Part shown: positions 7,594 to 51,277 of the stretch, one piece after another
Position numbering within the stretch: the stretch's first letter is position 1
Layout of the letters: every line of letters begins with the position of its first letter
Position numbers and translations under genes: made by a program
Notes under the pieces: model-generated
What the model saw: the letters and a program-made list of their open reading frames with translations, nothing else
Told to the model about the DNA's origin: nothing
Databases searched by the model: none
Assembly (NCBI GenBank): GCA_951812955.1
Contig: OX638340.1
Coordinates: 1,120,001 to 1,184,000 of the forward strand
Direction of reading: 5' to 3'
Source: an uncultured Gemmatimonadota bacterium
GTDB taxonomy: Bacteria > JAAXHH01
DNA length: 64,000 nucleotides

Positions 7594-7853
7594 GTCCTCT
7601 CACGAATCGAATACGCGAATATGCGCTGAACTCCTGCCCCAGCCGGCAAATCCCCGGATGGACCCTATGGGCACAAAGGTTTTGTCGTGCTCATACCCGA
7701 AGTATATACTAAATTCGGTCCTGCGGTACCGGATATTTGCTGTATCAGGGACCTGGTTTCAGGTGCGCTGCGCTGCGGTGCGGTCCAGCTTCCGTATCCC
7801 TCACGTCGGCATCGATTCTCCGGTTTCAACTTACTTATGACAGGAGCCACCGC

Positions 7854-8636: not shown

Positions 8637-8671
8637 CAGGACCTCTCCGCTCGACGGTACAGTCTCTGCCG

Positions 8672-8761
8672 GGCCTGTGGTTCCAACCGTTCAACGTGCC
8701 GCGCCTGTTATTCCAGCAGTTCAACGTGACGCGCCTGTTGTTCCAACCGGTCAACGCGTTG
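8672..8761. repeat. Tandem direct repeat, 3 x 30 bp (cctgtNgttccaaccgNtcaacgNgNcgcg), between convergent genes
   Basis: Units at 8672-8701, 8702-8731, 8732-8761 with a few substitutions each. Lies in the 150-bp gap between SDR (+) and epimerase (-) 3' ends. Confidence 0.7.
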
Positions 8762-8786
8762 CGACAGAATTCATGGACCAGTAGGC

Positions 8787-9491: not shown

Positions 9492-10714
9492 TCCGACTCC
9501 TTGCGCATGAATGGTCCGTGCCGTTCAATCCAGTCGTAGGTCTCCTGCCACGGCGCGCTGCCGTCCTCTTCCCAGATCTCCAGCCTTACGCCGCGAATAT
9601 TGCCCTCGGGAAACCCGGTCAGGCGGCTGACCGAAGGATAGCCAATGGTATGGTATACGTTGCCGCTCGGTAGCATCAACTTTCCGATATGACGTGGAAT
9701 CTCGGTCTTCGGGTTCCCCGCGATACGCACCAGTTCCGCCTCGTCCACTTCCACACCCAGTCCGGGTCCTTCCGGCACCGGTGAGCTTCCGTCAGCCACC
9801 TCGATCCGGCCGCCGGTGACGTCCTCGCCGTACTGGTCGTCCAGGTTGACCGTGTGCATCACATTGGGGATCACCGCGCCGAGGTGGAGCGCCATGGCTT
9901 TGCTAAGCGTCCCCCCGGTCAGCTGGATCACGGTGGACACATTCGCCTCGGCACAGGCGAAGCCCCGTTTCAGACTCATGCCGATACCGTGCTCGCCGAC
10001 CATGTAGGCGTCGGCGCATCCGAGCGTGATCTCCGGTCCGCCGCCGAGTTGCGGTACGTGCATGAGCAGGGGGATCGTCGTCTTTTCCCGCAGGCGGCGC
10101 CATCCGTCCACGTCGCGCCAGACCAGGGGATCTTCGATCACGCCGACGACAGGAGACTTCTCCAGGTGTTCGACTATTCTCGCCACGTCGGCGCCCGACC
10201 GGTTGTGGTTGAAATCGTAGTGCATCTTGAATCCGGGAGGCGCGACCTCCTCCACCGCGCGGTTGTGCTCGTAGACATCGAAGAACGCGCATGTGTGCAT
10301 CTTGAACGCCATGTACCCCTCGTCCGCCGCGCGCACGACCTCGGCGGCCAGGTCTTCGGGAGATGTCGAGCGTGTCCACGCCGCGACCGGCACCCGGTCG
10401 CGAACCTTCTGACCCATGAGCTTGTAGGCCGGTATTTCGAGGTGTTTCCCCATGAGATCGTACAGGGCGCCCATGAGCGCTACCGGTAGTTTGGCGTTTA
10501 TGTGGTCGAAGGGATGGCTGCCGGTCAACCGGTCCACTTCCCTGATGTCCATCGTCACATGTCCCCGGCTTTCGCCGTAACCCACCACGCCGTTGTCCGC
10601 GGTCACCTTGAATACCGTCTGCGTATCGATTCCATTGAACAGGACCTTACGGCCCTCGTTGCGGTCGGCCAACCTGGGATTGATGTGTGTAATCGCGATA
10701 TCGGTGATTTTCAT
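9488..10714 (-). CDS. Enolase-superfamily enzyme (MR/MLE family), paralog 2
   Basis: Internal ATG at 10714 (MKITDIAITHIN...). The 172-aa N-terminal extension in track ORF 9488..11230 overlaps the PhyH gene in another frame and is rejected. KMHYDFNH, VIEDPL, LMHV motifs of the MR/MLE barrel. Confidence 0.8.
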   Translation of the reverse strand: MKITDIAITHINPRLADRNEGRKVLFNGIDTQTVFKVTADNGVVGYGESRGHVTMDIREVDRLTGSHPFDHINAKLPVALMGALYDLMGKHLEIPAYKLMGQKVRDRVPVAAWTRSTSPEDLAAEVVRAADEGYMAFKMHTCAFFDVYEHNRAVEEVAPPGFKMHYDFNHNRSGADVARIVEHLEKSPVVGVIEDPLVWRDVDGWRRLREKTTIPLLMHVPQLGGGPEITLGCADAYMVGEHGIGMSLKRGFACAEANVSTVIQLTGGTLSKAMALHLGAVIPNVMHTVNLDDQYGEDVTGGRIEVADGSSPVPEGPGLGVEVDEAELVRIAGNPKTEIPRHIGKLMLPSGNVYHTIGYPSVSRLTGFPEGNIRGVRLEIWEEDGSAPWQETYDWIERHGPFMRKESE

Positions 10715-10752
10715 GGCCTGTCTCGTTTCCTTCCTGTTCTGCCGGGCATTTC

Positions 10753-11625
10753 CTATGAGTTCGCCAGCGACTTCGGCGTCCCCGCCTGATTCACCCCGTC
10801 CCGCACGGTGAGGGCGATCGGCCAGTTCTGCCCGCCCCGCTTTACGTACTCGTCCTCCGCACCGCATAGCCAGGTGAACATCTGTGCGGCGGCGAGCGCG
10901 CCCTGGAACTGTTCGAATACGCCGGCCGGGGGATTGAAGTCGATCGTATTGAAATCGATATCGTCCTGTTTTACCCAGTCCCGCACGGGCGGCGTGGTCC
11001 GCCAGTAGTTGTATTTGAGCAGGTTGCGATAGGCGCTCCTGCCCCGGGGGCCCGAGGTGGCTCGCGACCGGCGGTGCCAGATGCCGTAGACCGTAAGGAA
11101 GATCGTCCCCGCCGGGGCGGCCGTAGAAACCGTGCCGCGGATGGAACCCAGGTGGGCCATCATGGGCGCCTTGTTGCGCATGAAGTGCGAACCGGGCAGC
11201 ACGACGGTCGGCCCCATGTCCCCGGTGCATTCCTCCGGATAATAGAATACCTGAAGATACTCCAGCGCCGGGGTATAGATCGTACCGCCATCCCGGTGCC
11301 AGTTCTGCGGCTTGTCATATGGCAGCGGCCCCCGGTGATTGCTGATGATGAGCGGCAGCGTGAAATCGCGCCCCAGGAGCGACCGGACGGCGCCAGCCGC
11401 CTCCGGGTTCATGAGCACGCCGTCTACGAAGAACGACTCGCCCACGATTGGCGTGGGTTCGTAAGTGCTGTCACTGCGTTCCAGATAATCGACGACCTGT
11501 TCGTTGATCTCTTTAGGAACGACTTCCGGCAGCATCAGGAAGCCGTTGCGGCAGAAATCGACCACTTCGCGGTCCGTCATGGTCGCAGCGCAATCCATTT
11601 TCTTGCCGTAGGGCACCTTTGCCAT
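10753..11625 (-). CDS. Phytanoyl-CoA dioxygenase (PhyH) family Fe(II)/2-oxoglutarate-dependent oxygenase
   Basis: Internal ATG at 11625 with a GGTGGAG RBS. HRDGG and HxD...H-type cupin motifs (NWHRDGG, VVLPGSHF). Family assignment from overall similarity pattern. Confidence 0.7.
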   Translation of the reverse strand: MAKVPYGKKMDCAATMTDREVVDFCRNGFLMLPEVVPKEINEQVVDYLERSDSTYEPTPIVGESFFVDGVLMNPEAAGAVRSLLGRDFTLPLIISNHRGPLPYDKPQNWHRDGGTIYTPALEYLQVFYYPEECTGDMGPTVVLPGSHFMRNKAPMMAHLGSIRGTVSTAAPAGTIFLTVYGIWHRRSRATSGPRGRSAYRNLLKYNYWRTTPPVRDWVKQDDIDFNTIDFNPPAGVFEQFQGALAAAQMFTWLCGAEDEYVKRGGQNWPIALTVRDGVNQAGTPKSLANS

Positions 11626-11627
11626 GC

Positions 11628-12095
11628 CTATCTCCACCTTTCCAGGACGAACTCGTATCCCAGGCCGTAGTTGTCCTGTTCGTTCATGGCCAGGGATGCC
11701 TCCGGAAACTTGATGATGCGCCATCCGTCGTCCAGCGCTTCCTTGATCGACCGGTACCTGAAATCGCCGTTTTCGTCGAGGCCGTCGGAGTCCGCTCCAT
11801 CTTCGTAGATGCTGATACCGACCACGGCCGAGTGGGGGTTGGTCGAGGGTGCGTGCAAGTAGAGCAGACTCTGTTTAGACCCGGTCGAAGACTCCTGCGG
11901 CTGCAGCTGCGGTTGCGTCTGCTTCTGTGCCTGCGGTTGCTTCTGCGCCTGCGCCTGCTTCTGTGCCTGCGGTTGCTCCCGCACCTTTAACTGCCCCTGT
12001 GCCTGAGCCAGGGCCCGGTCAATGTCCTTGATATCAAGTTTTCCGTTTTTGAAACGCTTCCTGATTCGTTTCAATATCGCGGTCATTTTATCCAT
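11628..12095 (-). CDS. Hypothetical protein with (QAQKQ)n low-complexity linker; first gene of the PhyH-enolase-epimerase operon
   Basis: Track ORF 11628..12125 (start ambiguous: 12095, 12086 or 12125). Basic amphipathic N-terminus (MTAILKRIRKRFKNGKL), then QAQKQAQAQKQPQAQKQTQPQLQPQ encoded by a (CTGNNN)n DNA repeat, then an acidic C-terminal domain. Its stop at 11628 abuts the PhyH start at 11625. Confidence 0.45.
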   Translation of the reverse strand: MDKMTAILKRIRKRFKNGKLDIKDIDRALAQAQGQLKVREQPQAQKQAQAQKQPQAQKQTQPQLQPQESSTGSKQSLLYLHAPSTNPHSAVVGISIYEDGADSDGLDENGDFRYRSIKEALDDGWRIIKFPEASLAMNEQDNYGLGYEFVLERWR

Positions 12096-12277
12096 TCGTT
12101 CATCTACCTCATTACACACGCACACAATACACGCGCAGGCACGTGGCGGCCGGTCGTCCCCATGGCGGGAATGCCGGGCCTGGTCATTTAAGCTGGCTGT
12201 TGTCCGTTACGCGATTTCACGGAGAAATATGACCAACATAATCGGACGCCCGGCATGTGAAAAGAAGAAACGCTCAC

Positions 12278-13213
12278 CTATCGGCCCGCCAATCTTGCCA
12301 TGAGTATCAGGCTGCATTCTCCACAGACCAGCAGGGTGGCCAGGGTGAGGTGCATTACTTGCGCGGGTCGCGGCAGATCTCCGTAAGCAAGGGTGATGCC
12401 GATCAGGATTTGCAACATGATGCCGGCCAGGATGAGGCGGGCGACCGGAACCAGCCGGCTTCCGTGTGCGTGCCGCACGACGAATCGGTATACCAGGACG
12501 CCGGCAAGCAGGACTAGCCAGGAAGACAGCCGGTGTACGTGATCCACGAATCCCACCCGGGCCAGCCATTCGCCGCGGGGGAGGCCGCCGTCGTCTTTGA
12601 TGAAGGGATCGATGCCCTCACGGACCTGCGTGCCAAGGAGCAGTTGGATCGTCGTGACCGCCAGGAGTGCATACGCCAGCCGCAGGAGGACAGCGCGGGC
12701 TTCGGGCGCCATATTGACGCGGAACCGGGGTCCTGTGGACTGAAAGGTCACGTAGAGCAGGGCGCACAGCAGGATTACGGCGAGGAACATGTGCAGGGTA
12801 ATGATCCCGGGCTGGAGACCGGATCTGACCACCTGCCCACCCAGCCAGCCCTGGAAGCCGACCAGCACGAAACACAGGCCGGCGCCGTAGCAGACCGCGG
12901 GCTGTGTGCTTCGATATCGTAACGAACGCAGGAAGGTGACGAACACGAGTATTCCGATCACCACGCCCACGAGCCGGTTCGCGTATTCGATCCACATTTT
13001 GACGGGATTGAACGCGGCGATGTCGTAGCCCTTATCCAGTAGATAATCCCGGTCCAGGTCCTCGACGCTCGACGGCGGCAGCCAGGAACCCCAGCACCTT
13101 GGCCAGTCGGGACAGCCCAGGCCGGCCCCGGTGATCCGCACCAGGCTGCCGACGGATATCAGCAGAATCGTGGCTGCCAGCGTCGCCACGGCCGTTTTTT
13201 GAAAGGCGTTCAT
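12278..13213 (-). CDS. ctaA: Heme A synthase (COX15/CtaA family)
   Basis: GAGLGCPDWPRCWG signature, multiple TM helices, and conserved His-containing helices. Confidence 0.8.
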   Translation of the reverse strand: MNAFQKTAVATLAATILLISVGSLVRITGAGLGCPDWPRCWGSWLPPSSVEDLDRDYLLDKGYDIAAFNPVKMWIEYANRLVGVVIGILVFVTFLRSLRYRSTQPAVCYGAGLCFVLVGFQGWLGGQVVRSGLQPGIITLHMFLAVILLCALLYVTFQSTGPRFRVNMAPEARAVLLRLAYALLAVTTIQLLLGTQVREGIDPFIKDDGGLPRGEWLARVGFVDHVHRLSSWLVLLAGVLVYRFVVRHAHGSRLVPVARLILAGIMLQILIGITLAYGDLPRPAQVMHLTLATLLVCGECSLILMARLAGR

Positions 13214-17579: not shown

Positions 17580-18287
17580 ATGAACAGGACGGCGGCCTAC
17601 ACGGTCCAGCGTGGCATACCCGTCTCGCAACTGGGCGTCGACGCGAGAGGGGCGTTTATCACGCGAACCTACACCCATCTTCTCGGGGCGATCCTGGCAT
17701 TCGCCCTGATTGAGATCTACCTGTTTCAGACCGGCATGGCGGAGTCGATCGCCCGCGTGCTGCTCAGCGGGTCCTGGCTCATCGTACTGGGCGGTTTCAT
17801 GATCCTGAGCTGGATTGCGACCCATCTCGCGCACAATGCGCAGACCAAGGGGGGTCAATACGGCGCGTTGGGGCTGTTCGTCGTGGGCGAAGCCATTATC
17901 TTCACGCCGCTGCTCTACCTTGCGGATTCCATGGCGCCCGGCGTGATCAACAGCGCCGCCACGGTTACGCTCATCGGGTTTCTCGGGCTGACGATCGTGG
18001 CCTTTCATACCCGCAAGGACTTTTCCTTCCTCGGCGGGCTGCTGCGGTGGGGGTTCATCTGCGCCCTCGTGCTGATCGTAGCCAGCGTGCTATTCGGATT
18101 TCATCTGGGAACGATCTTCACCGTGGCCATGATCGTACTGGCGGGCGGCGCGATCCTCTACGACACGTCGAACGTCCTGCATCACTATCCCGAAGACCGG
18201 CACGTGGGCGCGGCGCTTCAACTCTTCGCCTCCGTGGCGCTGTTGTTCTGGTACGTCCTGCAGTTCTTTCTGTCGTCGAGAGACTGA
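17580..18287 (+). CDS. Bax inhibitor-1/YccA (TMBIM) family membrane protein
   Basis: Seven predicted TM helices and a conserved BI-1-like C-terminal region ([38 protein letters not shown]). RBS GAGAAGGAG. Confidence 0.75.
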
Positions 18288-18334
18288 AACATCTCGACGG
18301 GGCGCGTCAGTTAACCAATCGGAGAGGTACCGTT

Positions 18335-19042
18335 ATGTTCAACCGAAAGAGTCTACACGCTGCGGTGTCCATCGGCCTGATGGCCCTGGTGCCGTCGCTG
18401 TTCACACTGGCCTGCGAGGGACCGGTTGGACCGACTGGACCGGCAGGAGCTCAGGGTCCGGCTGGACCGCAAGGCGCTGCCGGATCACAGGGACCGGTGG
18501 GCACGGACGGAAGTACTGGACTACAGGGGCCGGAAGGACCGCCTGGACCGCCTGGACCGCCTGGCGAGGTAAGAGTCATCGATCTGGACCTGGTCGGTTC
18601 GTGGCGATTCGAGAGCACGGATATCGTGCAGACCCTTGCGGAGAATCTCAAGGACTACCTGATCAACGAAGCCGGCCTCGATGCGGCTACCGTGGAACTC
18701 TTACTCGCCGAGTTCTTCAGGGAGATGACGGAGGATCTCAAGAACTCGCCGATTGCGACGGTTAACCTCGCCGCGGACGCCACCTTCCTGGACGGTGACG
18801 GCGCCTCGGGGACCTGGTCGGCCAACGGTTCGACGCTGCTTGTGAAACAGGACGAGACCGTTTTTTTCCTGGGAAGCTATCGCGTGGATGGCGACGATCT
18901 GACGCTGACGCTTTCCAAGGCCCAGATGCTGCAAATGATCACCAGCGCGTCGGAGGAACCACTCGCCGAAGACGAAATCATGCTGCTTGATATCCTGTTC
19001 GGCGAAAACGGTACGGCCAACTACTTCTTCAAGCGGGTTTGA
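18335..19042 (+). CDS. Lipoprotein with collagen-like Gly-X-Y triple-helix repeats and a C-terminal lipocalin-like domain
   Basis: Internal ATG at 18335 with a GGAGAGG RBS. Signal peptide plus lipobox LAC. (GPxGPxG...) x ~20 triplets at 18.42-18.57 kb. C-terminal domain is paralogous to the ORF at 22296-22832. Confidence 0.7.
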
Positions 19043-19677: not shown

Positions 19678-22027
19678 TCTTCGTATCCTGCGCTTCCTTT
19701 TCCTTTTCCTCCGCCCTATTCTGACGCTGCATAGGGTTCTCCGGCGCCTGGCGGCGCTGCTTGAACAGCTGGAAGCGCGTGGGCTTAGACTGCGGTGGCC
19801 ACACGTTGTTGCTCAGGTCCGTGTCCGCGGTCTCCAGGAAGGGATCGAGGGTGATCCTTTCCACCGGCTGATCCATGGCGAACACCTTGGTTACGCGGTC
19901 GTCGCGTAGCCGCCAGATCTCCGCGGGGATCCGCTGTACCTCCCTGGTACCGTCCTCGAATTCAAACTCCAGGATCACCGGCATGACCAGGCCGCCTACA
20001 TTCTCGAAGGTCAGTTCGTAGAAGTGCTTGCCGCTTTCGAGCAGGGCCAGGTCCTCGGCATCCAGGTTCTTCACGTAGTTTTCATACTCTTCCTGGTCGA
20101 GGATCGATACTTCGAAGGGATCGTACCTGTTATAGAAATCGACCAGGGTCGAATCCTGCCGGACCATGGGATTCGGAATATCGCCCTGGTTGCGCGTGTA
20201 GCTGATGCCCCGGTTTTCTTCCCCTCTGTTCGCCCTGGCGATCTCTTTCTCCACTTCCGGATCCCGCGTGTTGATCTGGAACCACTTCACCTCGCCCAAT
20301 CCGAGATCCACGTGGTCCGTGCTGTAAAACCAGCCGCGCCAGTACCAGTCCAGGTCCACGGCGGACGCGTCTTCCATGCTGCGGAAGAAATCTTCGGGCG
20401 AAGGATGCTTGAACATCCAGCGCTGGGAATAGCTGCGGAAGGCATGGTCGAATAGCTCCCGCCCCATGACCGTTTCCCGGAGGATGTTCAGCGCGGTGGC
20501 GGGTTTACCGTATGCATTGGGGCCGAGTTGAAATACGGATTCCGAATTCGTCATGATGGGCGAGATCCGCGCCACGTCACCCTTCATGTAATCCACGATC
20601 CGGTGGGCCGCGCCGCGGCGGGATGGATACTCGGTATCCCATTCCTGTTCGGCCAGGTACTGGAGAAAGGTGTTCAGTCCCTCGTCCATCCACGTCCACT
20701 GCCGTTCGTCCGAATTGACGATCATGGGGAAATAGTTGTGCCCGACTTCGTGAATGATCACGCTGATCATGCCGTACTTGGTCCGTTCGCTGTAGGTGCC
20801 GTCCTTTTCCGGCCGGCCGCCGTTGAAGCAGATCATCGGGTATTCCATGCCGATGCGGTTCGTGTGCACGGAGATGGCCGTGGGATAGGGATAGTAAAAG
20901 GTATATTTCGAATAGACGTCTATCGTATGGGCCACCACCTTGGTGGAATAGCGCTCCCAAAGGGGGTTGCCTTCCTTGGGATAGAAGGACATGGCCATCA
21001 CCTTCTGCAGACCTGACTGGACCTCCATGGCGTCCCAGATGAACTTGCGCGAACTGGCGAATGCGAAGTCCCGGACGTTGTCCCCGTGGAAGACCCAGGT
21101 CTTCTTCTCCGTGGCCCGTCCCTTTTCCGCCTCGACCGCTTCCGCCTCGGTGACGATCATGACGGGCTCGGCGGCGGTCCGCGACCGTTCAAACCGGGAC
21201 TGCTGCTCGGCCGTAAGCACGTCCTTCGGATTCTGAAGTACGCCCGTGGCCGTTACGATATGGTCGGCCGGTGCGGTTATGCTGACCTTGTAGTCACCAA
21301 AGGGCAGTGTGAATTCACCACGGCCGAGGAACTGCTTGTGCTGCCAGCCCTCCACCTCGTTGTAAACCGCCATGCGGGGAAAGAACTGGGCGATGGCGTA
21401 CAGGTAATTGTCATCTTCCTCGAAGTACTCGTAGCCCGAGCGACCGCCGATCTTCATCCGGTCGTTGATGTTGTACCACCACTTGACCTTGAAGGTGTAG
21501 GACTTGCCGGGCTGAAGCGGCTCGGGGATATCCACCCGCATCATCGTCTTGTTGATGGTGTGGGACAGCGGATTGTCCCGCCGATCCCGCACCCACTCGA
21601 TCTTGAAGCCGCCGTCGAAGTCGTTCAGCAGGCGCTGCAACTGGGCAAAACTCATCCGCCCCGAAACCCGGCTGCCCGCGATCTTCCGCGTGTCCGAATC
21701 CCGGGCGCGCACGTTCTGGTCGAGTTGCACCCAGAGGTAGGCCAGTTCGTCGGGCGAGTTGTTGTGGTAGGTGATGGTCTCGGTGCCATGCAGCCGCTGC
21801 GTCTCGTCGTCCAGCTCGATCCGCATCTCGTAGTCTGCCTCGTTCTGCCAGTACTGATGGCCCGGCGCGCCGGATGCGGTCCGGTATACGTTCGGCGTCG
21901 GGGCTTCCTGCTTGATCTGGCGGAACTTGCTTCGGTTGATCGTCTCGGGACCCTTCTGGGCGGTAGCGGTGGTGGTAGCGCACGCGACGGTCAACGCGCA
22001 TATAAAGTAAAATAGGCGCTTAGCCAT
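19664..22027 (-). CDS. Secreted gluzincin zinc metallopeptidase (M1-like aminopeptidase family)
   Basis: Signal peptide. HEVGHNYF (HExxH) followed about 18 aa later by WMDEGLNTF (third-ligand Glu). 787 aa. Confidence 0.65.
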   Translation of the reverse strand: MAKRLFYFICALTVACATTTATAQKGPETINRSKFRQIKQEAPTPNVYRTASGAPGHQYWQNEADYEMRIELDDETQRLHGTETITYHNNSPDELAYLWVQLDQNVRARDSDTRKIAGSRVSGRMSFAQLQRLLNDFDGGFKIEWVRDRRDNPLSHTINKTMMRVDIPEPLQPGKSYTFKVKWWYNINDRMKIGGRSGYEYFEEDDNYLYAIAQFFPRMAVYNEVEGWQHKQFLGRGEFTLPFGDYKVSITAPADHIVTATGVLQNPKDVLTAEQQSRFERSRTAAEPVMIVTEAEAVEAEKGRATEKKTWVFHGDNVRDFAFASSRKFIWDAMEVQSGLQKVMAMSFYPKEGNPLWERYSTKVVAHTIDVYSKYTFYYPYPTAISVHTNRIGMEYPMICFNGGRPEKDGTYSERTKYGMISVIIHEVGHNYFPMIVNSDERQWTWMDEGLNTFLQYLAEQEWDTEYPSRRGAAHRIVDYMKGDVARISPIMTNSESVFQLGPNAYGKPATALNILRETVMGRELFDHAFRSYSQRWMFKHPSPEDFFRSMEDASAVDLDWYWRGWFYSTDHVDLGLGEVKWFQINTRDPEVEKEIARANRGEENRGISYTRNQGDIPNPMVRQDSTLVDFYNRYDPFEVSILDQEEYENYVKNLDAEDLALLESGKHFYELTFENVGGLVMPVILEFEFEDGTREVQRIPAEIWRLRDDRVTKVFAMDQPVERITLDPFLETADTDLSNNVWPPQSKPTRFQLFKQRRQAPENPMQRQNRAEEKEKEAQDTKTETR

Positions 22028-22295
22028 GGATCGGTCTCCTGGTTTTCTTTAGTAGTGGTCAGCGGTCAATGCTGTACGATTCGAATTTTGGAATATATGA
22101 CGCGGGCGGCCCCGTGTAAAGGATCATACGAGGCGACGTGTGTTGCGTGCAGGGCGGCACAAGGCCAACACGGGTGGGCGGTGCCGTTCCAACACGGGCG
22201 GGCGGCGAAAATTCTAAGTGCTGGTGAGCGACGCAGTCCCCATGGATTTCAAGGAAAGCGCCAGGTTTGCGGTGGCCTGCTGAACTAAAAGCTAC

Positions 22296-22832
22296 TTACC
22301 TCGAAAAATACATGATCATGACCTCTATGTCCTTCAGCATGATCCTCAACAGTTCCGCTTCCTCTTCGTCCTCCGCATCAAGACCCACGGTTGCCAGTAG
22401 CGAGGCTACTGCAAATTGCAGGGAAAGCGTAGTATCCGTAACGGTGTATCCCACGGAAAAAGTCTCACCATCTGAAGTCGTGACGGTTATTCGATTCCCA
22501 GACACCTGGTATCGGTCAGGCTGTTCGCCGTCGACAATCACCGTTCCGTCAGACCTGAAATCAAGGGTAAGGGCGAACGTCACGTTGGATTCTCCAAGCA
22601 TGTCAGATACCACCATGTCGGCCTGGCTCGCAGTCAGGCCCTCCCCGATCAGGTACTCCCGCAGGTTGGCGGCCAGTTTGGTATCGAAATCGTTTCCCGT
22701 ATATTTCCACGTGCCGATCAGCTTCTCTGCAGGGTCCGGGTCCGGTTCCGGTGTGGGAGTCGGGGCCATCGGATTATCGTCATCTCCGCAGGCTAGCGCC
22801 ACCAGGACGGTCATCATAAGTAGAATCCGCAT
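22296..22832 (-). CDS. Lipoprotein with lipocalin-like domain (paralog of the C-terminal domain of the 18335-19042 protein)
   Basis: Signal peptide plus lipobox LAC, a Pro/Thr/Asp-rich linker, then LIGTWKYTGNDF...LREYLIGEGL...TLSLQF, alignable to [12 protein letters not shown]...[11 protein letters not shown]...LTLTLS. Confidence 0.6.
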   Translation of the reverse strand: MRILLMMTVLVALACGDDDNPMAPTPTPEPDPDPAEKLIGTWKYTGNDFDTKLAANLREYLIGEGLTASQADMVVSDMLGESNVTFALTLDFRSDGTVIVDGEQPDRYQVSGNRITVTTSDGETFSVGYTVTDTTLSLQFAVASLLATVGLDAEDEEEAELLRIMLKDIEVMIMYFSR

Positions 22833-22937
22833 ATCATGCCTCCTGCCGAGTAGGCTCGGCTATACGTGTCTTCAAGAATGGATCGGAGATGTTAACGGTG
22901 AGCTCTCCGTTTCGTCTATCAATACTTCGCTTGTGGT

Positions 22938-23246
22938 TCAAATAGATACCCTGATCGTGATGGTCTCCCTTATTGTCTCGTCGTACAGCAGGCTTTTTAT
23001 TCTGCCCTTCACCACATATCGCCCCAAATCGTTGAAACCGTGATTGAGTGACAACAGGGCCAACTTGTTGTGCTGGGCCGTTGCGACTACTCTTTGGGTT
23101 GGTTCACCAGTTGTCTGAACGATGGGGTTACTTTCCGAACAGGACGCAATCGCGAACAACATTGTAATCAGTAGGATAGACTGGAATGCACGCAAGTACA
23201 ATATACACACCCTTTCTGAAGAAGTTAGGGGCACCATTTGACCCAA
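22938..23246 (-). CDS. Hypothetical small lipoprotein (in a low-GC patch)
   Basis: Track ORF. Hydrophobic stretch plus lipobox-like IASC. Sits in an AT-richer segment, so the coding status is uncertain. Confidence 0.3.
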   Translation of the reverse strand: MGQMVPLTSSERVCILYLRAFQSILLITMLFAIASCSESNPIVQTTGEPTQRVVATAQHNKLALLSLNHGFNDLGRYVVKGRIKSLLYDETIRETITIRVSI

Positions 23247-23747
23247 TGCCTATGGTACCTGCCAGTGTTGTACGCTCGCGCTATAATTCGGTGAGTGTTA
23301 TACGATTCACCGGGGGTTGGGATCTAACTCGAAGCCCTAAAAATCGGCCACTGAATTGAGCAAACTACCCCGACCAATGTAGCACGAACAATCGACAATA
23401 GCGAGTGTCATGGTTTCAAATTGAAAATATGATCTATATTTGATTTTCCAACTGAAAACCAACTTGAAAATATAAACATCGGCTTCCAAGCTGATATTTT
23501 ATGATCAAAAAGTGATTTTTATAGTATTTAATGTGACTAAATCGCATACAACCGGATGGGTCGCCTGTGCCCTTACTTGAGGATACAAAGTCGCACAGAA
23601 GTCGGTGAAGCGGGACTCGTGGCATTTTCGGGCTATTCATCGGATATTGACAGGGACAATCCGCGGATGTACCCTGAATCGACCGCCGGTCCGGCACGGC
23701 CCGGCTCTTTCGCGGAAGAACCGCGGGAACCGTTCTCGGAAGAAACC

Positions 23748-24272
23748 ATGAAATCGCAGGGCTTCTGGCTTACCTTCGCAGGCCTCCTACTGGTGTGCGT
23801 AGCATCGGACGCGGTTGCGGTGCGAATATCGGCCCACCCGTTCTACATCAGCGTCTGCCAGGTCGATCACAACCCCGATTCCGACGCGCTGGAGCTGGCT
23901 TTTCGCATCTTTACGGACGACCTGGAACAGGCCCTCGAGGCGATGGGAACGGACCGGCTGCGCCTGGGGACGGAGCGCGAAGCCGAGAAAGCCGATCTTT
24001 ACATCGGCCGTTATCTCGCGCGCCACGTCGAAATCGAAATTAACGACCAACGCGTCAGCGCCGTCTTTCTTGGAAAGGAAGTGGATACGGACGCAATCTG
24101 GTGTTATCTGGAGGTTGAGAATATCCCGCTCTTAAACACGATGACCATGACGAACACCCTGCTCCTTGAAACTTTTGAAGACCAGGTCAATCTCGTGCAC
24201 GTCAACGCCAACGGTCAGAAGATGAGCCTGGTGTTCAACGGACAGCACGTCAAGCAGACGCTGGACTTCTGA
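23748..24272 (+). CDS. Secreted hypothetical protein (174 aa)
   Basis: Internal ATG of track ORF 23556..24272, with an N-terminal signal peptide (MKSQGFWLTFAGLLLVCVASDAVA). No family recognised. Confidence 0.5.
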   Translation: MKSQGFWLTFAGLLLVCVASDAVAVRISAHPFYISVCQVDHNPDSDALELAFRIFTDDLEQALEAMGTDRLRLGTEREAEKADLYIGRYLARHVEIEINDQRVSAVFLGKEVDTDAIWCYLEVENIPLLNTMTMTNTLLLETFEDQVNLVHVNANGQKMSLVFNGQHVKQTLDF

Positions 24273-24317
24273 CCCGTTATCCAGCCCCCAGTCACAACCA
24301 TAGATGATTCCCGGATC

Positions 24318-24830
24318 ATGCCCCGAAACACACGAAATGCAGCCCGCATAGTAGACCTGAAGGCGTTTGCGGACTTGAGATCCGGCCTGGGTACCATCGT
24401 CGCCACTTCCGGCGGATATGATCCGCTCCATCCCGGGCACGTCTCCTGCCTGTTGGAATCATCCGCCTATGGCGATACCCTGGTCGTGATCGTCAACGGC
24501 GACGGTTTTCTTCGCCTTAAAAAGGGCAAGCCCTTCATGGATATCACGGCCCGCTGCCAGGTCGTCTCCGGTATTCGAGCCGTGGATTTTGTCATTCCCT
24601 TTGAGGTGGAAGACGACGACACGGTATGCGAGGCCCTGAGGATGATCCGGCCCCACGTGTTCACCAAGGGTGGAGACCGGACCGACATGTCCAATATCCC
24701 CGAGTGGGGGGTGTGTACGGAACTCGGAATCGAAGTGATATCTGGGGTGGGGATGGACAAGGCCTGGAGCAGTTCCGACTACCTGGAATCCTGGGGACGA
24801 TTCTGGGCCGATCGTGCAGGCCGCGGCTAG
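24318..24830 (+). CDS. Cytidylyl/adenylyl-transferase-like nucleotidyltransferase (RfaE domain II / HldE C-terminal-like)
   Basis: TSGGYDPLHPGH (HxGH nucleotidyltransferase motif), VIVNGDGFLRLKKGKP, FTKGGDRT. These resemble the ADP-heptose synthase adenylyltransferase domain. Confidence 0.7.
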   Translation: MPRNTRNAARIVDLKAFADLRSGLGTIVATSGGYDPLHPGHVSCLLESSAYGDTLVVIVNGDGFLRLKKGKPFMDITARCQVVSGIRAVDFVIPFEVEDDDTVCEALRMIRPHVFTKGGDRTDMSNIPEWGVCTELGIEVISGVGMDKAWSSSDYLESWGRFWADRAGRG

Positions 24831-24983
24831 TTAAACAGTGTTGTATTTGTTTCTTGTCCCGCGTCCCTTGCCGTCATAATTTACCGGTACAGGAAATCCA
24901 AACGCCCACGCGACAATCTCGCAGGAAATACACCGTTCAGGACGAGAAACCATCCGGTCTCTCCCGGATGACCCGGAGGAGAA

Positions 24984-26087
24984 ATGTCCAGTAGATACCG
25001 CGCCGCCGTAATCGGTCTCGGCCGCATGGGGAGCACCTTCGACGACGAGATCGATCAGGGCGGGTCCATTTTCCTGCCTTACTGCCACGCACCTTCCTAT
25101 TACGCCGCGCCGGATGTGGACCTGGTCGCGGGAGCGGATCCCCACGACGAACAGCGTTCCATCTTCGGGGTGCGCTGGGGCATCGAAGACGGCCACCTGT
25201 ACACCGACTACCGAGATTTGCTCGAAAAGGAAAAACCCGATCTGCTCAGCGTCTGTACCACCGCCCGGATCCGGTCGCAGATCGTGGAGGACGCCGCCCG
25301 GGCAGGCGTGAAGGCGATCTGGGCCGAAAAGCCCATTGCCCTGACCCTGGCCGAGGCGGACGCCATGGTGAAAACCTGCGATGACCACGGCGTAGCCCTG
25401 GCCTTAAACTGCGCCCGGCGCTGGCATCCATTCTTCTCCCAGGCGCGGACCATGATCGAGGAAGACGAACTCGGCGACATCGTCCAGGTGACGGGCTACG
25501 GCCAGTGCGGACTTTCCCACAACGGCAGCCACCTGATCGATATCGTCCGGTACATGGCGGGCGGAAGGGTGGAATGGGTGTACGGCGAGATGGAATCCGA
25601 CGAGGCTGCGGAGGGCGAAAAGGATCTGATGGGCAACGGATACCTGGCCTTCGAGAACGGAGTCAGGGCCTATGTCCGGGGCATGCCCTGCGGGATCGCG
25701 AACTGGGAAATCGACGTACTGGGCACGAAGGGCCGCTTCCGCTCGATCGCCAACGGCCAGGACGCCGAACTGATCAAACTGCACCCGGGAGGGCCGCGCG
25801 GGCGGGGCGTGCCGGCCCGCATGCCCTTCCCCTGGCCCGCCCATTACCCCGGGATGGGACTGACGATCGTGGCGGACCTGGTTTCGGCTATCGAAAACGG
25901 TCATCAGCCCAAGTGTTCCGGGGTTGACGGGCGCGAGGCGCTGGAAGTGGCCGTCGCCCTCCGCGAATCGCACCGCGGCGGCGGGCGGAAGATCCATCTG
26001 CCCCTGGAGGACCGCGGCCTGGGTATACTGTCTTCCGAGATTCACGGGGACGACATCCCGGCCAGAGTCCGGCGCCTCCAAAGTTGA
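24984..26087 (+). CDS. Gfo/Idh/MocA-family NAD(P)-dependent oxidoreductase
   Basis: N-terminal AVIGLGRMGS Rossmann motif, EKP motif (WAEKPIA) and the C-terminal alpha/beta domain. Confidence 0.85.
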   Translation: MSSRYRAAVIGLGRMGSTFDDEIDQGGSIFLPYCHAPSYYAAPDVDLVAGADPHDEQRSIFGVRWGIEDGHLYTDYRDLLEKEKPDLLSVCTTARIRSQIVEDAARAGVKAIWAEKPIALTLAEADAMVKTCDDHGVALALNCARRWHPFFSQARTMIEEDELGDIVQVTGYGQCGLSHNGSHLIDIVRYMAGGRVEWVYGEMESDEAAEGEKDLMGNGYLAFENGVRAYVRGMPCGIANWEIDVLGTKGRFRSIANGQDAELIKLHPGGPRGRGVPARMPFPWPAHYPGMGLTIVADLVSAIENGHQPKCSGVDGREALEVAVALRESHRGGGRKIHLPLEDRGLGILSSEIHGDDIPARVRRLQS

Positions 26088-26160
26088 CGTCCGCACGAAT
26101 GACGTCCGCACAAATGAAGTCCACTAAGTTGCGGTCCCCAGGATTGTATAGGGAGATGGC

Positions 26161-26925
26161 ATGAAGCTCGGGTTCGTAACCTACCAGATCGGCAAAGACT
26201 GGGATGTGCCGACCATCATCGACATGTGCGGCCGAACGGGTTTCACCGGAGTCGAACTCCGCACGACCCACGCCCACGGCGTGGAAGCATCGCTCAGTCC
26301 AGGTGAACGCGGCGAGGTCAGGCGGCTGTTCGAGGACGGCGGCGTGGATCTCGTGGGACTCGGAACGGCCTTTGAGTACCACTCGGTCGATCCCGACGAG
26401 GTCCAGGCGAATATTAAAGGAACTGTGGAGTATGCCAGACTGGCGGCCGACCTGGGCTGTCCAGGTATCAAGGTGCGGCCTAACGGTCTGCAGACGGAAG
26501 CGGGCATACCGGAAGAAGCGACTCTCGAACAGATCGGAATGGCCATCGGGCAGTGCGCGGAAGCGGCCGGCGGTCTCGGCGTGCAAATCCGGGTCGAGGT
26601 ACACGGGAAGGACACCCAGGAGCCGCGCCGGATGCGCGCCATTATGGATCATGCGGACCATCCCAATGCGTATATCTGCTGGAATTCCAATTTCGGCGAA
26701 GTGGTGGAAGGATCGATCGAGAGCAACTACCGGCTGCTGAGTCACAAGATCGGCCTGGTGCATATCACCGAAATCTACCGCGCCGAGTATCCCTGGCGGG
26801 AACTGTTCAGGCTGCTCAAGGCCGACGGTTACGAAGGTTACACGCTCGCGGAAATCGCGCACAGCCCCGAACCCGAACGGCTGATGGGCTATTACAAGGC
26901 ACTCTGGGAAGCCTACCAGGTCTGA
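26161..26925 (+). CDS. Sugar-phosphate isomerase/epimerase (xylose isomerase-like TIM barrel)
   Basis: GVELR, RVEVHG, WNSNFGE motifs typical of AP-endonuclease-2/IolE/hydroxypyruvate isomerase-like TIM barrels. Confidence 0.8.
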   Translation: MKLGFVTYQIGKDWDVPTIIDMCGRTGFTGVELRTTHAHGVEASLSPGERGEVRRLFEDGGVDLVGLGTAFEYHSVDPDEVQANIKGTVEYARLAADLGCPGIKVRPNGLQTEAGIPEEATLEQIGMAIGQCAEAAGGLGVQIRVEVHGKDTQEPRRMRAIMDHADHPNAYICWNSNFGEVVEGSIESNYRLLSHKIGLVHITEIYRAEYPWRELFRLLKADGYEGYTLAEIAHSPEPERLMGYYKALWEAYQV

Positions 26926-26935
26926 GCGCGCACCG

Positions 26936-27055
26936 CGCGACATTAAGCGACATCCGGCGCGGCATTATGCGCGTATCCGGCGCGGCATCAAGCGCGTATC
27001 TGGTACGACATTAAGCGCGTATCCGGCGCGGCATTTATCGACATTAAATCGAACC
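26936..27055. repeat. Complex intergenic tandem repeat (motifs gacattaa and gcgcgtatccggcgcggcat, each about 3x)
   Basis: Read directly between the TIM-barrel gene stop (26925) and the aminotransferase start (27098). Confidence 0.6.
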
Positions 27056-27097
27056 GCCGATTATCTGCATGGGCAATCTGAAAGGATCGATTGATTT

Positions 27098-28435
27098 ATG
27101 ACCACGACGGCGGCAACCTCGCAGGAGGCCATTTACCGGGAACGGACGCCGGGTTCCTACGAAGCGTTCAAACGCTCCCGTGAAGTCATGCCCGGCGTCG
27201 CAAAGGGCGCATACTTCTACGCCCCTTATCCCGTCACCATCGAACGGGCCGAGGGATGCTATCTGATTGACGTGGACGGGAACCGGTACGTGGACTTCGC
27301 CAACCACCATACCACCCAGATCCTTGGACACAACCATCCGGCCATAATCCGGGCGGTGGAACGGCAGATCGAACGGGGCATCGCCGTAGCCGCACCCATG
27401 GGAAGTGAAACGGCCCTCGCCGAGGAACTGTGCCGGCGGGTCGAATCCCTGGACAAGGTCCGATTCTGCAATTCGGGGACCGAAGCCACGCTGCACGCCA
27501 TCCGGCTGGCTCGGGAATACACGGGACGGCACCTCATCGCCAAGTTCGAGGGCGGGTACCACGGCAGTCACGACGCCGTCGAAATCAGCGTCGCACCAGA
27601 CCCGGCGAAGGCCGGTCCCCGGGAGCGGCCGGTACCGGTGCGGGGTGCAGGTGGCATGCCGCCCAACACCACCGAGAACGTCATTATCCTCCCCCAGGAT
27701 GACGAAGCCGCCGTGGAGACCCTCATCGAGGAACACCGGGACGAACTGGCGGCCGTGATTTTCGATCCCCGGACCGGTGTCATTCCCCAGCGACCCGCAT
27801 TCATCCGAGCGGTGCGGGAAATCACGCGCAGGCACGGCGTTCTGCTCATCTTCGATGAAATCGTGGGTTTTCGCGCATCGCCGGGCGGCGTCCAGGCGCA
27901 GTGCGGCATTCTGCCCGACCTGACCGCCTATGGCAAGATCGTGGGCGGCGGCTTTCCCGTGGGCGCCTTCGGCGGTCGGAAGGACCTGATGGATGTGCTG
28001 GATCCGACCCTGGGCAGACCGAGGCTGTCGCAAAGCGGATCTTTCAGCGGGCATCCGGTGGCCATGGCCGCCGGTCTTGCCATGCTTGAAGTGCTGACTC
28101 CCGACGTTTATGACCGTCTGGACCAACTGACCGAGCGCCTGATGGACGGTTTCCGGAATGTATTCGAACGGACCGGAACTGTGGCAACAGCTGTCGCATC
28201 AGGTTCCACCTTCAGTATTTACTTCACGGAGGGCCCGGTCAGGGTCTATCGGGCCGCCGCCGCGGCGGATAAGCGTCCCGTATCCGCGGTTTTTCTCGGC
28301 CTGCTCAACCGCGGTTACTATCTGTCGAACGGCCTGGCCATGAACTGTCTTTCGGCGGCCATGGACGAATCGCATATCGATGGCCTTGTTGCGGCCCTGG
28401 CCGAGACTTTGGCCGAGGCCCTGGAAGAAAACTGA
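27098..28435 (+). CDS. Class-III aminotransferase, glutamate-1-semialdehyde 2,1-aminomutase (HemL)-like
   Basis: Strong resemblance to HemL throughout (GHNHPAI, NSGTEAT, FEGGYHG, DEIVGFR, YGKIVGGGFPVGAFGG with the PLP-Lys context). Genomic context is not heme-related, so it is called by family only. Confidence 0.8.
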   Translation: MTTTAATSQEAIYRERTPGSYEAFKRSREVMPGVAKGAYFYAPYPVTIERAEGCYLIDVDGNRYVDFANHHTTQILGHNHPAIIRAVERQIERGIAVAAPMGSETALAEELCRRVESLDKVRFCNSGTEATLHAIRLAREYTGRHLIAKFEGGYHGSHDAVEISVAPDPAKAGPRERPVPVRGAGGMPPNTTENVIILPQDDEAAVETLIEEHRDELAAVIFDPRTGVIPQRPAFIRAVREITRRHGVLLIFDEIVGFRASPGGVQAQCGILPDLTAYGKIVGGGFPVGAFGGRKDLMDVLDPTLGRPRLSQSGSFSGHPVAMAAGLAMLEVLTPDVYDRLDQLTERLMDGFRNVFERTGTVATAVASGSTFSIYFTEGPVRVYRAAAAADKRPVSAVFLGLLNRGYYLSNGLAMNCLSAAMDESHIDGLVAALAETLAEALEEN

Positions 28436-28500
28436 CGTCCTTGGCCGGGATTCGCCGGCCGGTCTTTGTCCATTCGAACCACCCATACAGGAACGGAACC

Positions 28501-30162
28501 ATGTCTCAATCATTCAAGTGGGCTGTCATCGTAATCGGCGCAATGGCCGGCTTCTACCTGATCCCCCTGTTGATTTCGGCGCAGGGCGGCAGATCCGAGG
28601 AGTCGGCCGCCCGTCCCCTGCCCCCGGACGCCTCGCCGCGTGATCAGCAGGTCTTCAGGTTCATGAGCCCGGAACCCCGCACGCTCGACTCCGCCATAAA
28701 CGATTATGACACCGAAGACACCATCATCCCCTTCGAACCTCTGCTCCGGCGCGATCCGAACTGGAATCCGGAACCCGCTGCCGCCGACCGTTACGAATCT
28801 TCGCCGGACGGCAAAACGTGGACCTTCCATCTCCGGGAAGGCGCGAGATGGAGCGACGGCCGTCCCGTCACGGCCCATGACTTTGTATACTCATTTCGCC
28901 GCATGCTGGACCCGCAGGAGGCCAATCCCTACGGGTTCTTCTACCACGATTTCAAAAACGGACGCGCCATCAACCGCGGTGAAATCAAGGACCTGACCCA
29001 ACTGGGCGTCCGAGCGGCCGACGATCTCACCCTTGTCATCGAGACGGAGAAATCGGCCCCCTACCTGCCATACATCGTATCCTACGGGAACGCGCTGCCC
29101 GTGCCCCCGTGGCAGGTGGAAAAATACGATCGCAAGTGGACCCGGCTGGAGAACATCGTCTCGAATTCAGGGTTCAAACTGTCGGAGTGGATCACGGGCA
29201 GCCACATGACCCTGGTCCCGGACCCCATGTACAACGGTCCCCACAAGCCCTACCTGGAGAAGGTCATCCATCCCTTCCGCAACGCGGCGGTGGCCACGGT
29301 CCTCGCCTACGAGAACAACGAAGTGGACCGTGAACTCGTCGACGTGACCGACATGCCCCGCATCATGGCCGATCCCGAACTCGCGCCGGACCTGGTCAAG
29401 GTGGCCGCGAGGGCATCATGGTATCTCTTCTACCGCACGCGCCAGCCGCCCTTCGACGACGTACGGGTCCGGGAAGCCTTCACCCGGGCGATCGACCGGG
29501 AGGTCATCACAAATATCCTGCTGGGTGGAACGGCCGTACCCGCCTATTCCATGATTCCGCCCGAATTCGCCGAATACAACGGACCGGCCATGAAGGACTA
29601 CCAGTCCTATGACCCGGCAAAGGGCAGGGAGCTGATTCGGGAGGCCGGCTATCCCCGCGGGAGGGGATTCCCCCGACAGGAAATGTGGCTTCGGGCGCCC
29701 AATCCCACCATCAAGCGGATCAGCGAGGCAATCATGGCCATGTTGAAGGAGAACATCGGGGTCGATGTCACCATACGTGCCGCAGACCGCACCATGTATA
29801 TGAACAACATGTACAACTGGCGCATGAACCTGGGGCTGATCGTGTTCTACGCCGATTACCTCGACCCGCGCAACATGCTCGACATGATCTGGCACTCGCA
29901 GCCGCAGGGCTACGGCAGGTCGGACTGGACCAACGCCGAATTCGACCGGATGGTGGAACGGGCGGCCTCTGAACTGGATAGGGAGAAGCGACGCGCGCTT
30001 TACGCGGAGGCGGAGGAAATCATGGTTTCCGACTACGCCGGTTCCTTTCTGTTCCACCCGGTGAACCTTGAACTCAGGAAACCCTGGGTGAAAGGGATTA
30101 CGGAAAACCCGGACGGCACGGTCGGCGCAATGGACTATACGAGGGTCTACATCTCCCGGTAA
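28501..30162 (+). CDS. ABC-transporter substrate-binding protein, family 5 (oligopeptide/dipeptide/nickel type); orphan, no permease or ATPase adjacent
   Basis: Internal ATG at 28501. TM/signal anchor, SBP_bac_5-like length and motifs (WSDGRPVTAHDFVYSFRRMLDP). Confidence 0.8.
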   Translation: MSQSFKWAVIVIGAMAGFYLIPLLISAQGGRSEESAARPLPPDASPRDQQVFRFMSPEPRTLDSAINDYDTEDTIIPFEPLLRRDPNWNPEPAAADRYESSPDGKTWTFHLREGARWSDGRPVTAHDFVYSFRRMLDPQEANPYGFFYHDFKNGRAINRGEIKDLTQLGVRAADDLTLVIETEKSAPYLPYIVSYGNALPVPPWQVEKYDRKWTRLENIVSNSGFKLSEWITGSHMTLVPDPMYNGPHKPYLEKVIHPFRNAAVATVLAYENNEVDRELVDVTDMPRIMADPELAPDLVKVAARASWYLFYRTRQPPFDDVRVREAFTRAIDREVITNILLGGTAVPAYSMIPPEFAEYNGPAMKDYQSYDPAKGRELIREAGYPRGRGFPRQEMWLRAPNPTIKRISEAIMAMLKENIGVDVTIRAADRTMYMNNMYNWRMNLGLIVFYADYLDPRNMLDMIWHSQPQGYGRSDWTNAEFDRMVERAASELDREKRRALYAEAEEIMVSDYAGSFLFHPVNLELRKPWVKGITENPDGTVGAMDYTRVYISR

Positions 30163-30212
30163 AATAACCGCGTGGGGAGACCGCGACACAACGACACTAC
30201 GTTAGTACATGC

Positions 30213-30259
30213 AAAAAAAGCCTCCGCGGCGATACATTCACGCGGAGGCTTTTGGGTTT
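30213..30259. terminator. Bidirectional Rho-independent terminator between convergent SBP and TPR genes
   Basis: AAAAAAA-gcctccgcg-(12 nt loop)-cgcggaggc-TTTTGGGTTT. The A-tract upstream gives a U-tract for the opposite strand. Confidence 0.6.
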
Positions 30260-30304
30260 CTACAAATTGTCTGAACGTCGTAACCGTGTCGTTCCCAACG
30301 TCGA

Positions 30305-30898
30305 TTACCGGATCGCGTCCTTCATCTGAGCGACGATGTTGCGCAGCGACGCGGCGTTACGGGCTCGAGGCGCCAGTTTCAGGTAGCTCTCATAGGACTT
30401 GATCGCGTTCGGATAGTCCTCGCGGGTCTGGTACAGGATACCCAGGTTGTAGTGCCAGTTCGCCTTCTTGCCGTTGATGCGGATCGCGGCCCTGTAGGAA
30501 CTGATCGCGCTGCTGCTATTCTTGATTTTCTGATAAGCGCTGCCCAATGCGCCGTGTGCGTCCGCATATGCGGCATCGATCTGCGTCGCCTGCTTGAACG
30601 ACTTGATCGCGTTGGAGGTCTGGCCCGCCTTCTGCTGGGAAAGGCCGAGGTTGTAGTGCGCTTCCTTGTAATCCGCCTTCAATTCAACGGCTTTCTGGAA
30701 AGCGCCGATAGCATTCGTATACTGTCCTGCCTTGAAATAGGCGATGCCGAGATTGTAATGACGGGGGGGATCGTCCGGCATGGCATCCACTTTCGTCTTC
30801 GCATCCGCGACCGTCTGGGCTTGTATCGCAGGCGCTGCGACCAGCGCGGCCAGAACCATGAAGACGGCAAGGCAATTCAGTTTCTTGATGCGTGTCAT
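30305..30898 (-). CDS. Secreted TPR-repeat protein
   Basis: Internal ATG at 30898 with a GGAGGAA RBS, signal peptide, and four to five 34-aa TPR units (AHYNLGxxY...AIxxYxxAL). Confidence 0.7.
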   Translation of the reverse strand: MTRIKKLNCLAVFMVLAALVAAPAIQAQTVADAKTKVDAMPDDPPRHYNLGIAYFKAGQYTNAIGAFQKAVELKADYKEAHYNLGLSQQKAGQTSNAIKSFKQATQIDAAYADAHGALGSAYQKIKNSSSAISSYRAAIRINGKKANWHYNLGILYQTREDYPNAIKSYESYLKLAPRARNAASLRNIVAQMKDAIR

Positions 30899-31078
30899 CC
30901 TCGTTCCTCCGTTGGATAACTGAGCGTTACAGGACATTGAGTATTTATGGACAAATCGTGTTTTTGAGCGTATATTGAATCCAAGATGACTATAATATAG
31001 CATTTTGTCGAAATTTGCAAGTGAAATTCTCTACTTTCTTGTGGACGAAACGGTATCCTGGCATCAGGGAGGCCATCG

Positions 31079-51253: not shown

Positions 51254-51277
51254 GTGCCGCTCCGGCAATCCGGTGTA

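Follow-up and report, generated by a model that had tools for sequence, protein, structure and literature searches.

The 64-kb stretch of Gemmatimonadota contig OX638340.1 analyzed here, called the window below, contains five consecutive rightwards-oriented genes that encode an HxGH nucleotidyltransferase (NT), a Gfo/Idh/MocA oxidoreductase (Gfo), a xylose-isomerase-like TIM barrel (TIM), a class-III aminotransferase (AT) and a family-5 solute-binding protein (SBP). We propose that the real unit is the central Gfo–TIM–AT triad, an operon with its own promoter whose products would act on a sugar-like substrate to interconvert its hydroxyl, keto and amino groups, the probable direction being catabolic, and we place this reading at a little below even odds (about 0.45). 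The triad recurs in loci with different flanking genes, a promoter-like block that is conserved in relatives lies between it and NT, and its aminotransferase is not the heme enzyme HemL; the chemistry, its direction, the substrate class and the part played by SBP are inferred.

The window was compared with a set of related loci, which are given L numbers. The closest AT homologues (97% and 88% identity) are in metagenome-assembled genomes (MAGs) labelled Gemmatimonadetes or Gemmatimonadota (L009 and L010), another with 81% identity is named Gemmatimonadetes, and an exact-sequence look-up of the window AT returned no match. Many further relatives are from Poribacteria, Caldilineaceae, Latescibacteria, Acidobacteria UBA6911 and Spirochaetia MAGs, the isolate names of which suggest sponge or marine sources. 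The full series DUF6702–NT–Gfo–TIM–AT–SBP is kept in six loci (L001–L004, L009 and L010), but unrelated flanking genes (M1 peptidase, signal peptidase S26, Bax1-I, fatty-acid desaturase and cupin) are equally syntenic there, and co-occurrence among these close relatives therefore says little about function.

Several loci have the module genes within other flanks. L005 and L089 keep the gene order of the window, with relatives of Gfo (79% identity), TIM (77%) and AT (64%), and so does L171 (76%, 75% and 60%), with a 17 bp overlap of its TIM and AT reading frames. On a 21-kb contig of ERZ1305449, Gfo is followed directly by AT (63%) and then by a PALP-domain gene, with no TIM between, and a Latescibacteria contig has Gfo and TIM without AT, followed by an enolase-superfamily gene. 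AT is also lacking beside the Gfo–TIM pair of L147 and the divergently oriented Gfo/TIM pair of L131. Gfo and AT orthologues are adjacent in four or more distinct genomic settings, and what recurs is Gfo accompanied by TIM, AT or both, in one sub-clade of each family. The other members of the series do not travel with it: NT is absent from most other module instances, SBP is downstream of AT only in the window's own clade (L001–L003, L009 and L010), both are missing from L005/L089, L171, the ERZ1305449 contig and the Latescibacteria contig, and DUF6702 is found only in close Gemmatimonadota relatives. An earlier note on this DNA had treated all five genes as one cassette; where the flanks differ, co-localization is seen for Gfo–TIM–AT, and for NT in L147.

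A neighbour-joining tree places the Gfo-linked ATs in one clade, comprising those of the window clade, L005, the ERZ1305449 protein and their closest relatives (one of them named Zixibacteria), with the L171 AT just outside; ATs encoded beside Amidohydro_2, SDR, MlrC and SBP5 transporter genes branch apart from them. The repeated adjacency of Gfo and AT supports the earlier proposal that a keto-intermediate is made and then transaminated. Genes near the module in other lineages encode GH127, sulfatases, Amidohydro_2 and a nitrilase-like hydrolase (CN_hydrolase), and in four of the loci with other flanks, genes for a right-handed beta-helix protein, a second Gfo paralogue or both lie divergently upstream. 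A literature search for the Gfo–TIM–AT gene combination found nothing.

The spacing of the genes is consistent with this grouping. In L003 the gaps are 8 bp between Gfo and TIM, 30 bp between TIM and AT, and 35 bp between AT and SBP, against 210 bp between NT and Gfo, and the NT–Gfo separation is 153–210 bp across the window and its relatives. Alignment of this spacer in the window, L001, L003 and L010 reveals a conserved block right after the NT stop codon (TTGTCC-17 nt-TATAAT in the relatives, with TAATTT as the second element in the window), and the rest of the spacer diverges. A simple promoter scan of the region did not list this block, which we interpret as a putative promoter of the Gfo operon. 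Because it lies between NT and Gfo, NT looks like part of a separate transcription unit, probably shared with DUF6702, and Gfo, TIM and AT are probably co-transcribed. Co-transcription of SBP with AT is possible but uncertain, since the terminator-like hairpin between them is kept in L001 and L009, differs in L010 and is absent in L003.

Gene calls across the window are based on profile searches and a map of open reading frames (ORFs), and all five genes listed in the earlier note were recovered where it had placed them (Table 1). The secreted hypothetical protein that it had seen ahead of them is a DUF6702 protein, with a signal peptide after M65 of a long ORF and a protein start at 23748. 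The SBP ORF opens at a TTG at 28441; relatives conserve the ATG at 28501, giving the 553-residue protein, whose N-terminal signal sequence is MSQSFKWAVIVIGAMAGFYLIPLLISAQG.

Table 1. Features of the NT–SBP region, numbered from the first base of the window.
Feature	Coordinates	Strand	Remarks
DUF6702 secreted protein	23748–24272	+	PF20420, E 5e-45; upstream neighbour, outside the conserved module
HxGH nucleotidyltransferase (NT), HldC/RfaE-domain-II-like	24318–24830	+	170 aa; PF01467 CTP_transf_like; PLHPGH motif
Putative sigma-70-like promoter element	24854–24882	+	upstream of Gfo; block kept in relatives
Gfo/Idh/MocA oxidoreductase (Gfo)	24984–26087	+	367 aa; N- and C-terminal domains; module gene 1
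15-bp tandem repeat (x2.5), unit TGACGTCCGCACAAA	26085–26122		TRF score 62; Gfo–TIM spacer
Xylose-isomerase-like TIM barrel (TIM)	26161–26925	+	254 aa; AP_endonuc_2; module gene 2
23-bp tandem repeat (x4.4)	26935–27035		TIM–AT spacer; varies between strains
Class-III aminotransferase (AT), GSAM-like omega-transaminase type	27098–28435	+	445 aa; PF00202 Aminotran_3; module gene 3
GC-rich hairpin with weak T tail, terminator-like	28441–28462	+	between AT stop and SBP start
Family-5 solute-binding protein (SBP), OppA/MppA type	28501–30162	+	553 aa; PF00496 SBP_bac_5, E 6e-81

Gfo has no signal peptide, as for a cytoplasmic enzyme, and carries an AEKP motif; its fold matches are sugar and cyclitol dehydrogenases, GnnA and GenD2 among them. 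TIM matches an uncharacterized planctomycete barrel, Art22 (for which a literature search found nothing relevant), ketose 3-epimerases, IolI, the 3-keto-glucoside epimerase YcjR, and IolE. The curated cut-offs for IolG, IolE and UDP-GlcNAc 3-dehydrogenase are all missed widely, and in fold searches with either protein many differently specialized enzymes score alike, such that substrate classes are not told apart. As judged by these matches, TIM is a barrel of the epimerase/isomerase type and not specifically IolE, and the label 'IolE-like' that it had been given is rejected as too specific. YcjR is the partner of a Gfo-type glucoside 3-dehydrogenase, YcjS (PMC11543891), but sequence identity to the Escherichia coli YcjS/YcjR system is only 16%, and the ycj cluster has no aminotransferase, a sugar-type SBP, and a transporter encoded within the cluster.

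We also note two arrangements of genes related to TIM and Gfo. A TIM relative (61%) in L104 (130–2780) is followed 35 bp on by a GH127 glycosidase gene (50% identical to the GH127 of L171), a second link between the barrel family and GH127. In L170, from Chloroflexi bacterium TSY, a segment of about 7 kb is tandemly duplicated (702–2886 and 8001–10185), and contains a Gfo orthologue (69% to the window Gfo) followed by genes for an Ldh_2 dehydrogenase, a DUF4058 protein and a 553-residue protein.

The best structural match of AT is to StoTA, the omega-transaminase of Sphaerobacter thermophilus (PDB 6k8h; 351 bits, 44% identity over 428 aligned residues), with matches to glutamate-1-semialdehyde 2,1-aminomutase (GSAM, the HemL protein) at 292–299 bits and 41% identity, a small margin in identity. 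AT and StoTA share the aligned pyridoxal phosphate lysine (K280 in AT, K282 in StoTA), a Y-x-APYP segment and, in the loop that follows the HGS motif, an insertion of 7 residues; unlike StoTA, in which R36 is the proposed carboxylate-binding residue, the AT family has an invariant Lys36. On these comparisons AT appears no more distant from omega-transaminases than from HemL. StoTA uses beta- and gamma-amino acids in vitro (PMC10589169).

In Caldilineaceae, relatives of AT also occur in operons for import and degradation in which the SBP5 transporter is complete. A long operon in two Caldilineaceae MAGs (L012, 3104–18555, and L014) encodes SBP_bac_5, two permeases, two proteins of about 485 residues without Pfam matches, an AT relative (58%), three Amidohydro_2 proteins, a DegT aminotransferase and an M14-like peptidase; the set amounts to an uncharacterized system for taking up and degrading some nitrogen-containing compound. 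In L016 (Poribacteria) and L020 an AT relative lies in a different set, at about 7000–13000, with genes for creatininase-like, Laminin_G_3 and SDR proteins on one side and a protein of about 260 residues without a Pfam match and Amidohydro_2 on the other; an M81/MlrC-like peptidase is encoded nearby, and in L020 also a DUF6785/DUF6784 protein.

In the scheme that we favor, the substrate would be a sugar, glycoside or cyclitol-like molecule, on which Gfo would interconvert a ketone and a secondary alcohol, TIM would epimerize or isomerize beside that carbonyl, in the manner of YcjR, ketose 3-epimerases and IolI, and AT would interconvert the carbonyl and an amine. The favored direction is catabolic or salvage, such that an amino compound would be deaminated to a keto compound, which would then be epimerized and reduced to an ordinary sugar or polyol, and the SBP that was added in the window clade may bring the substrate to a permease encoded elsewhere. 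We favor this direction because the module neighbours in other lineages are degradative, members of the wider AT family occur in operons for uptake and degradation that include complete SBP5 transporters, the window clade has added a binding protein, and no glycan-assembly genes are present.

The locus follows an enzymatic logic that is already known, in an uncharacterized variant made up of members of very common superfamilies. As in GnnAB, WbpBE, NtdCA, IolG with MosB, and rhizopine systems, a Gfo/Idh/MocA dehydrogenase gene adjoins an aminotransferase gene. The partner aminotransferases in the GnnA/GnnB, WlbA/WbpE, GenD2/GenS2 and IolG–MosB pairs are of the DegT/DnrJ/EryC1 type, whereas AT matches only PF00202 Aminotran_3 and is class III. 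GnnA/GnnB-type systems are moreover biosynthetic and act on nucleoside diphosphate sugars or inositol, whereas the contexts of the module are degradative. The two-step logic of a dehydrogenase followed by an aminotransferase is known from GnnA/GnnB, WlbA/WbpE, GenD2/GenS2 and IolG with MosB (PMC6668481).

We tentatively raise the narrower idea, about which we are more doubtful than about the triad as such, that this is an uncharacterized module of the FCB group (Gemmatimonadota, Latescibacterota, Zixibacteria-like and sponge or marine MAGs) in which an omega-transaminase-like class-III enzyme replaces the usual DegT type, and installs or removes an amino group on a sugar, glycoside or cyclitol whose carbonyl is made by Gfo and repositioned by TIM. 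If so, it would be a new route of amino-sugar or aminocyclitol turnover in glycan-degrading symbionts, and a class-III transaminase would join amino-sugar enzymology. A triad that moves a carbohydrate between hydroxyl, keto and amino states would give a function to three large families with 65–90% identity across phyla, which now carry no annotation beyond 'Gfo/Idh/MocA oxidoreductase', 'sugar phosphate isomerase/epimerase' and 'aspartate aminotransferase family / HemL', and the frequent mis-annotation of such transaminases as HemL in sponge-associated and marine MAGs would be corrected. If the triad does otherwise, the locus is an ordinary uncharacterized catabolic operon.

Several observations weigh against a three-gene operon acting on a sugar. 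The main misfits to a sugar substrate are the peptide-like SBP and the activity of the nearest characterized relative of AT on beta- and gamma-amino acids rather than sugars (PMC10589169). Gfo, TIM and AT all score under every curated equivalog cut-off. Gfo relatives of about 70% identity also occur with other partners (Ldh_2 and HpcH aldolase). TIM relatives of 50–70% identity mostly stand alone, without a conserved neighbour across 77 metagenome loci, and clustering of the genes next to TIM relatives in 80 metagenome loci likewise showed no shared partner, so that TIM by itself is a poor anchor for the module. The sampling of contexts was narrow, comprising 12 look-ups of loci and two collection scans. 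Finally, an NT orthologue adjoins the module in a second arrangement, in L147, and a biosynthetic link of NT is conceivable.

The alternative that survives best, which we nevertheless consider unlikely, is that two or more unrelated units adjoin here without a common substrate: Gfo and TIM in sugar epimerization of the YcjS/YcjR type, and AT and SBP in the use of an imported beta- or gamma-amino acid or a peptide-derived amine. The 172-bp TIM–AT spacer of the window with its variable repeat would fit such a boundary, as would the occurrence of Gfo–TIM without AT and of AT relatives without Gfo or TIM, the latter in peptide, amidohydrolase and SBP5 operons; the substrates of StoTA (PMC10589169) and the likeness of SBP to OppA and MppA point the same way. 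However, AT lies directly beside a Gfo orthologue in four flank contexts, one of them without TIM, the TIM and AT genes overlap in L171 and are near-contiguous in L003, and the Gfo-linked ATs are a clade of their own.

Less probable still is the reading of the earlier note, that all five genes form one biosynthetic pathway, its product being a nucleotide-activated amino sugar or an aminocyclitol that would go into a secreted small molecule or a glycan of the cell surface. The genes are co-directional and stay together in six related loci, the pairing of Gfo with an aminotransferase is known amino-sugar logic (GnnA and GenD2 are among the Gfo fold matches, and IolG acts with MosB; PMC6668481), and NT recurs next to a Gfo–TIM module in L147. 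The six loci are uninformative, however, with the M1 peptidase, S26 and desaturase genes being equally syntenic, and the L147 copy of NT (65% identical), which adjoins an extended module, is convergent with it and not co-transcribed. A single pathway is further at odds with the conserved promoter-like block between NT and Gfo, with the absence of NT and SBP from L005/L089, L171 and the ERZ1305449 and Latescibacteria contigs, and with a binding protein, which implies uptake and not export. Profile scans of the window found no glycosyltransferase, flippase, sugar-1-phosphate enzyme, kinase/mutase or exporter gene, and no DegT-type sugar aminotransferase; the neighbours elsewhere are degradative, and nothing points to the making of a cell-surface sugar. 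The analogies that had been drawn with rhizopine, aminocyclitol and UDP-GlcNAc3N clusters did not stand up either, since AT is class III and not DegT, Gfo is far under the IolG cut-off and SBP is of the peptide type.

NT resembles HldC in length (170 versus 173 residues) and in its HxGH motif, and its best structural match is to BpHldC (PDB 5x9q, E 8.5e-13), but it scores 78.6 bits against the RfaE domain II model TIGR02199, under the cut-off of 181.5. Profile scans of the window ORFs found no GmhA, HldA or GmhB gene near NT, and with the curated cut-off missed and no partner genes nearby we reject a role in an ADP-heptose pathway. SBP has the SBP_bac_5 domain and export signal of the OppA/MppA family and its best structural matches are OppA (E 1.6e-64) and MppA, but it is far under the cut-offs of curated OppA, DppA and MppA-type models (at best 234 versus 947 bits) and has no adjacent permease or ATPase. 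That SBP is an orphan had been noted before and was confirmed, in that no ABC permease or ATPase turned up when the 40 largest ORFs of the window were scanned with profiles. There is precedent in MppA for a binding protein encoded away from the permease that it uses. The membership of SBP in the pathway fared less well: it follows AT only in the window clade, and the flanks there are syntenic too.

That AT is the HemL (GSAM) of this organism, here by chance, is scarcely credible and we dismiss it: HemL models are its best NCBIfam matches, it is 41% identical to Synechococcus GSAM, and in L005/L089 the gene convergent downstream of AT is a bona fide hemE (397 bits versus a cut-off of 303), but AT fails the HemL model, lacks the GSAM residues and shares the loop insertion and APYP motif with StoTA. 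Specifically, AT scores 356.9 bits against TIGR00713, under the cut-off of 527.3, and the family members in L005, L171, L012, L015 and L016 score 343–375 bits; the HemL proteins of Prochlorococcus and Nostoc, as positive controls, gave 602.7 and 570.3 bits in the same scan. Alignment to 2gsa shows the GSAM segment GGVSSPVRAF replaced by PGVAKGAYFYAPYP in AT, with AKG-AY in place of SPVR, and Ala414 at the position of GSAM Glu406; Arg32 of the GGV(N/S)SPVRAF segment and Glu406 are substrate-site residues of GSAM. The AT-like family is also multi-copy in some genomes, with two members (L016 and L039) in one Poribacteria MAG. The only heme-related gene in the scanned ORFs of the window is that for heme A synthase CtaA (12278–13213), and profile scans of the large ORFs in the window found neither hemA nor hemB. 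As the hemE gene adjoins AT in one lineage only, we consider its presence coincidental. The earlier note had set AT outside heme synthesis, and rightly; its label 'HemL-like' is to be softened, omega-transaminases being at least as close. The HemE proteins of L005 (11408–12940, leftwards) and L089 (12224–13753, leftwards) have 510 residues with a 166-residue N-terminal extension, and a TP_methylase gene lies 1.3 kb beyond hemE.

Both spacers within the triad contain tandem repeats in the window. The 15-bp repeat starts at the Gfo stop codon and takes up much of the Gfo–TIM spacer. A complex repeat had been reported earlier in the 172-bp gap before AT, and this proves to have a 23-bp unit, with three matches within 3 mismatches versus none expected in shuffled sequences. 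It is diverged in L001, present in about one copy in L009, and absent from L003 and L010, so that its copy number differs even between near-identical strains; the unit is unique in the window, and no copies were found elsewhere. It looks like a local, strain-variable repeat. A dispersed element is rejected for want of other copies, and a structured RNA because folding (z = +2) is worse than in shuffles; an Rfam search of 22000–30400 gave no RNA matches, riboswitches included, at gathering thresholds or with the limit relaxed to E <= 1.

Other parts of the window differ among relatives or in composition. In the 1.7-kb spacer that separates the M1 peptidase and DUF6702 genes (22030–23747), G+C is 52%, compared with about 61%; L001 has 310 bp there and L003 about 0.9 kb, and the window may thus hold a strain-specific insertion. 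The ORFs of this spacer are weak, one (22267–23043, rightwards) having no Pfam match and the other (22296–22832, leftwards) a marginal lipocalin-like match. Directly after SBP, a leftwards gene (30305–31003) encodes a 232-residue TPR protein that has no counterpart at the syntenic site in L001 and L003, and this looks like another strain-specific insertion. At the right end, the segment from 56000 to 64000 has a G+C content as low as 50–54% and few long ORFs past a hybrid histidine kinase/response regulator gene (55058–57418), and may be a foreign island. Two rightwards genes (18047–19042 and 59211–59762) encode proteins with collagen triple-helix repeats, which are unusual for bacteria, and the first of them is kept in L001–L003. 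Finally, a leftwards gene at 50099–51268, between IMP-cyclohydrolase-like and enolase-superfamily (MR_MLE) genes, encodes an AAA_21/AbiEii-like ATPase and could be a defence or toxin–antitoxin-type insertion among metabolic genes.

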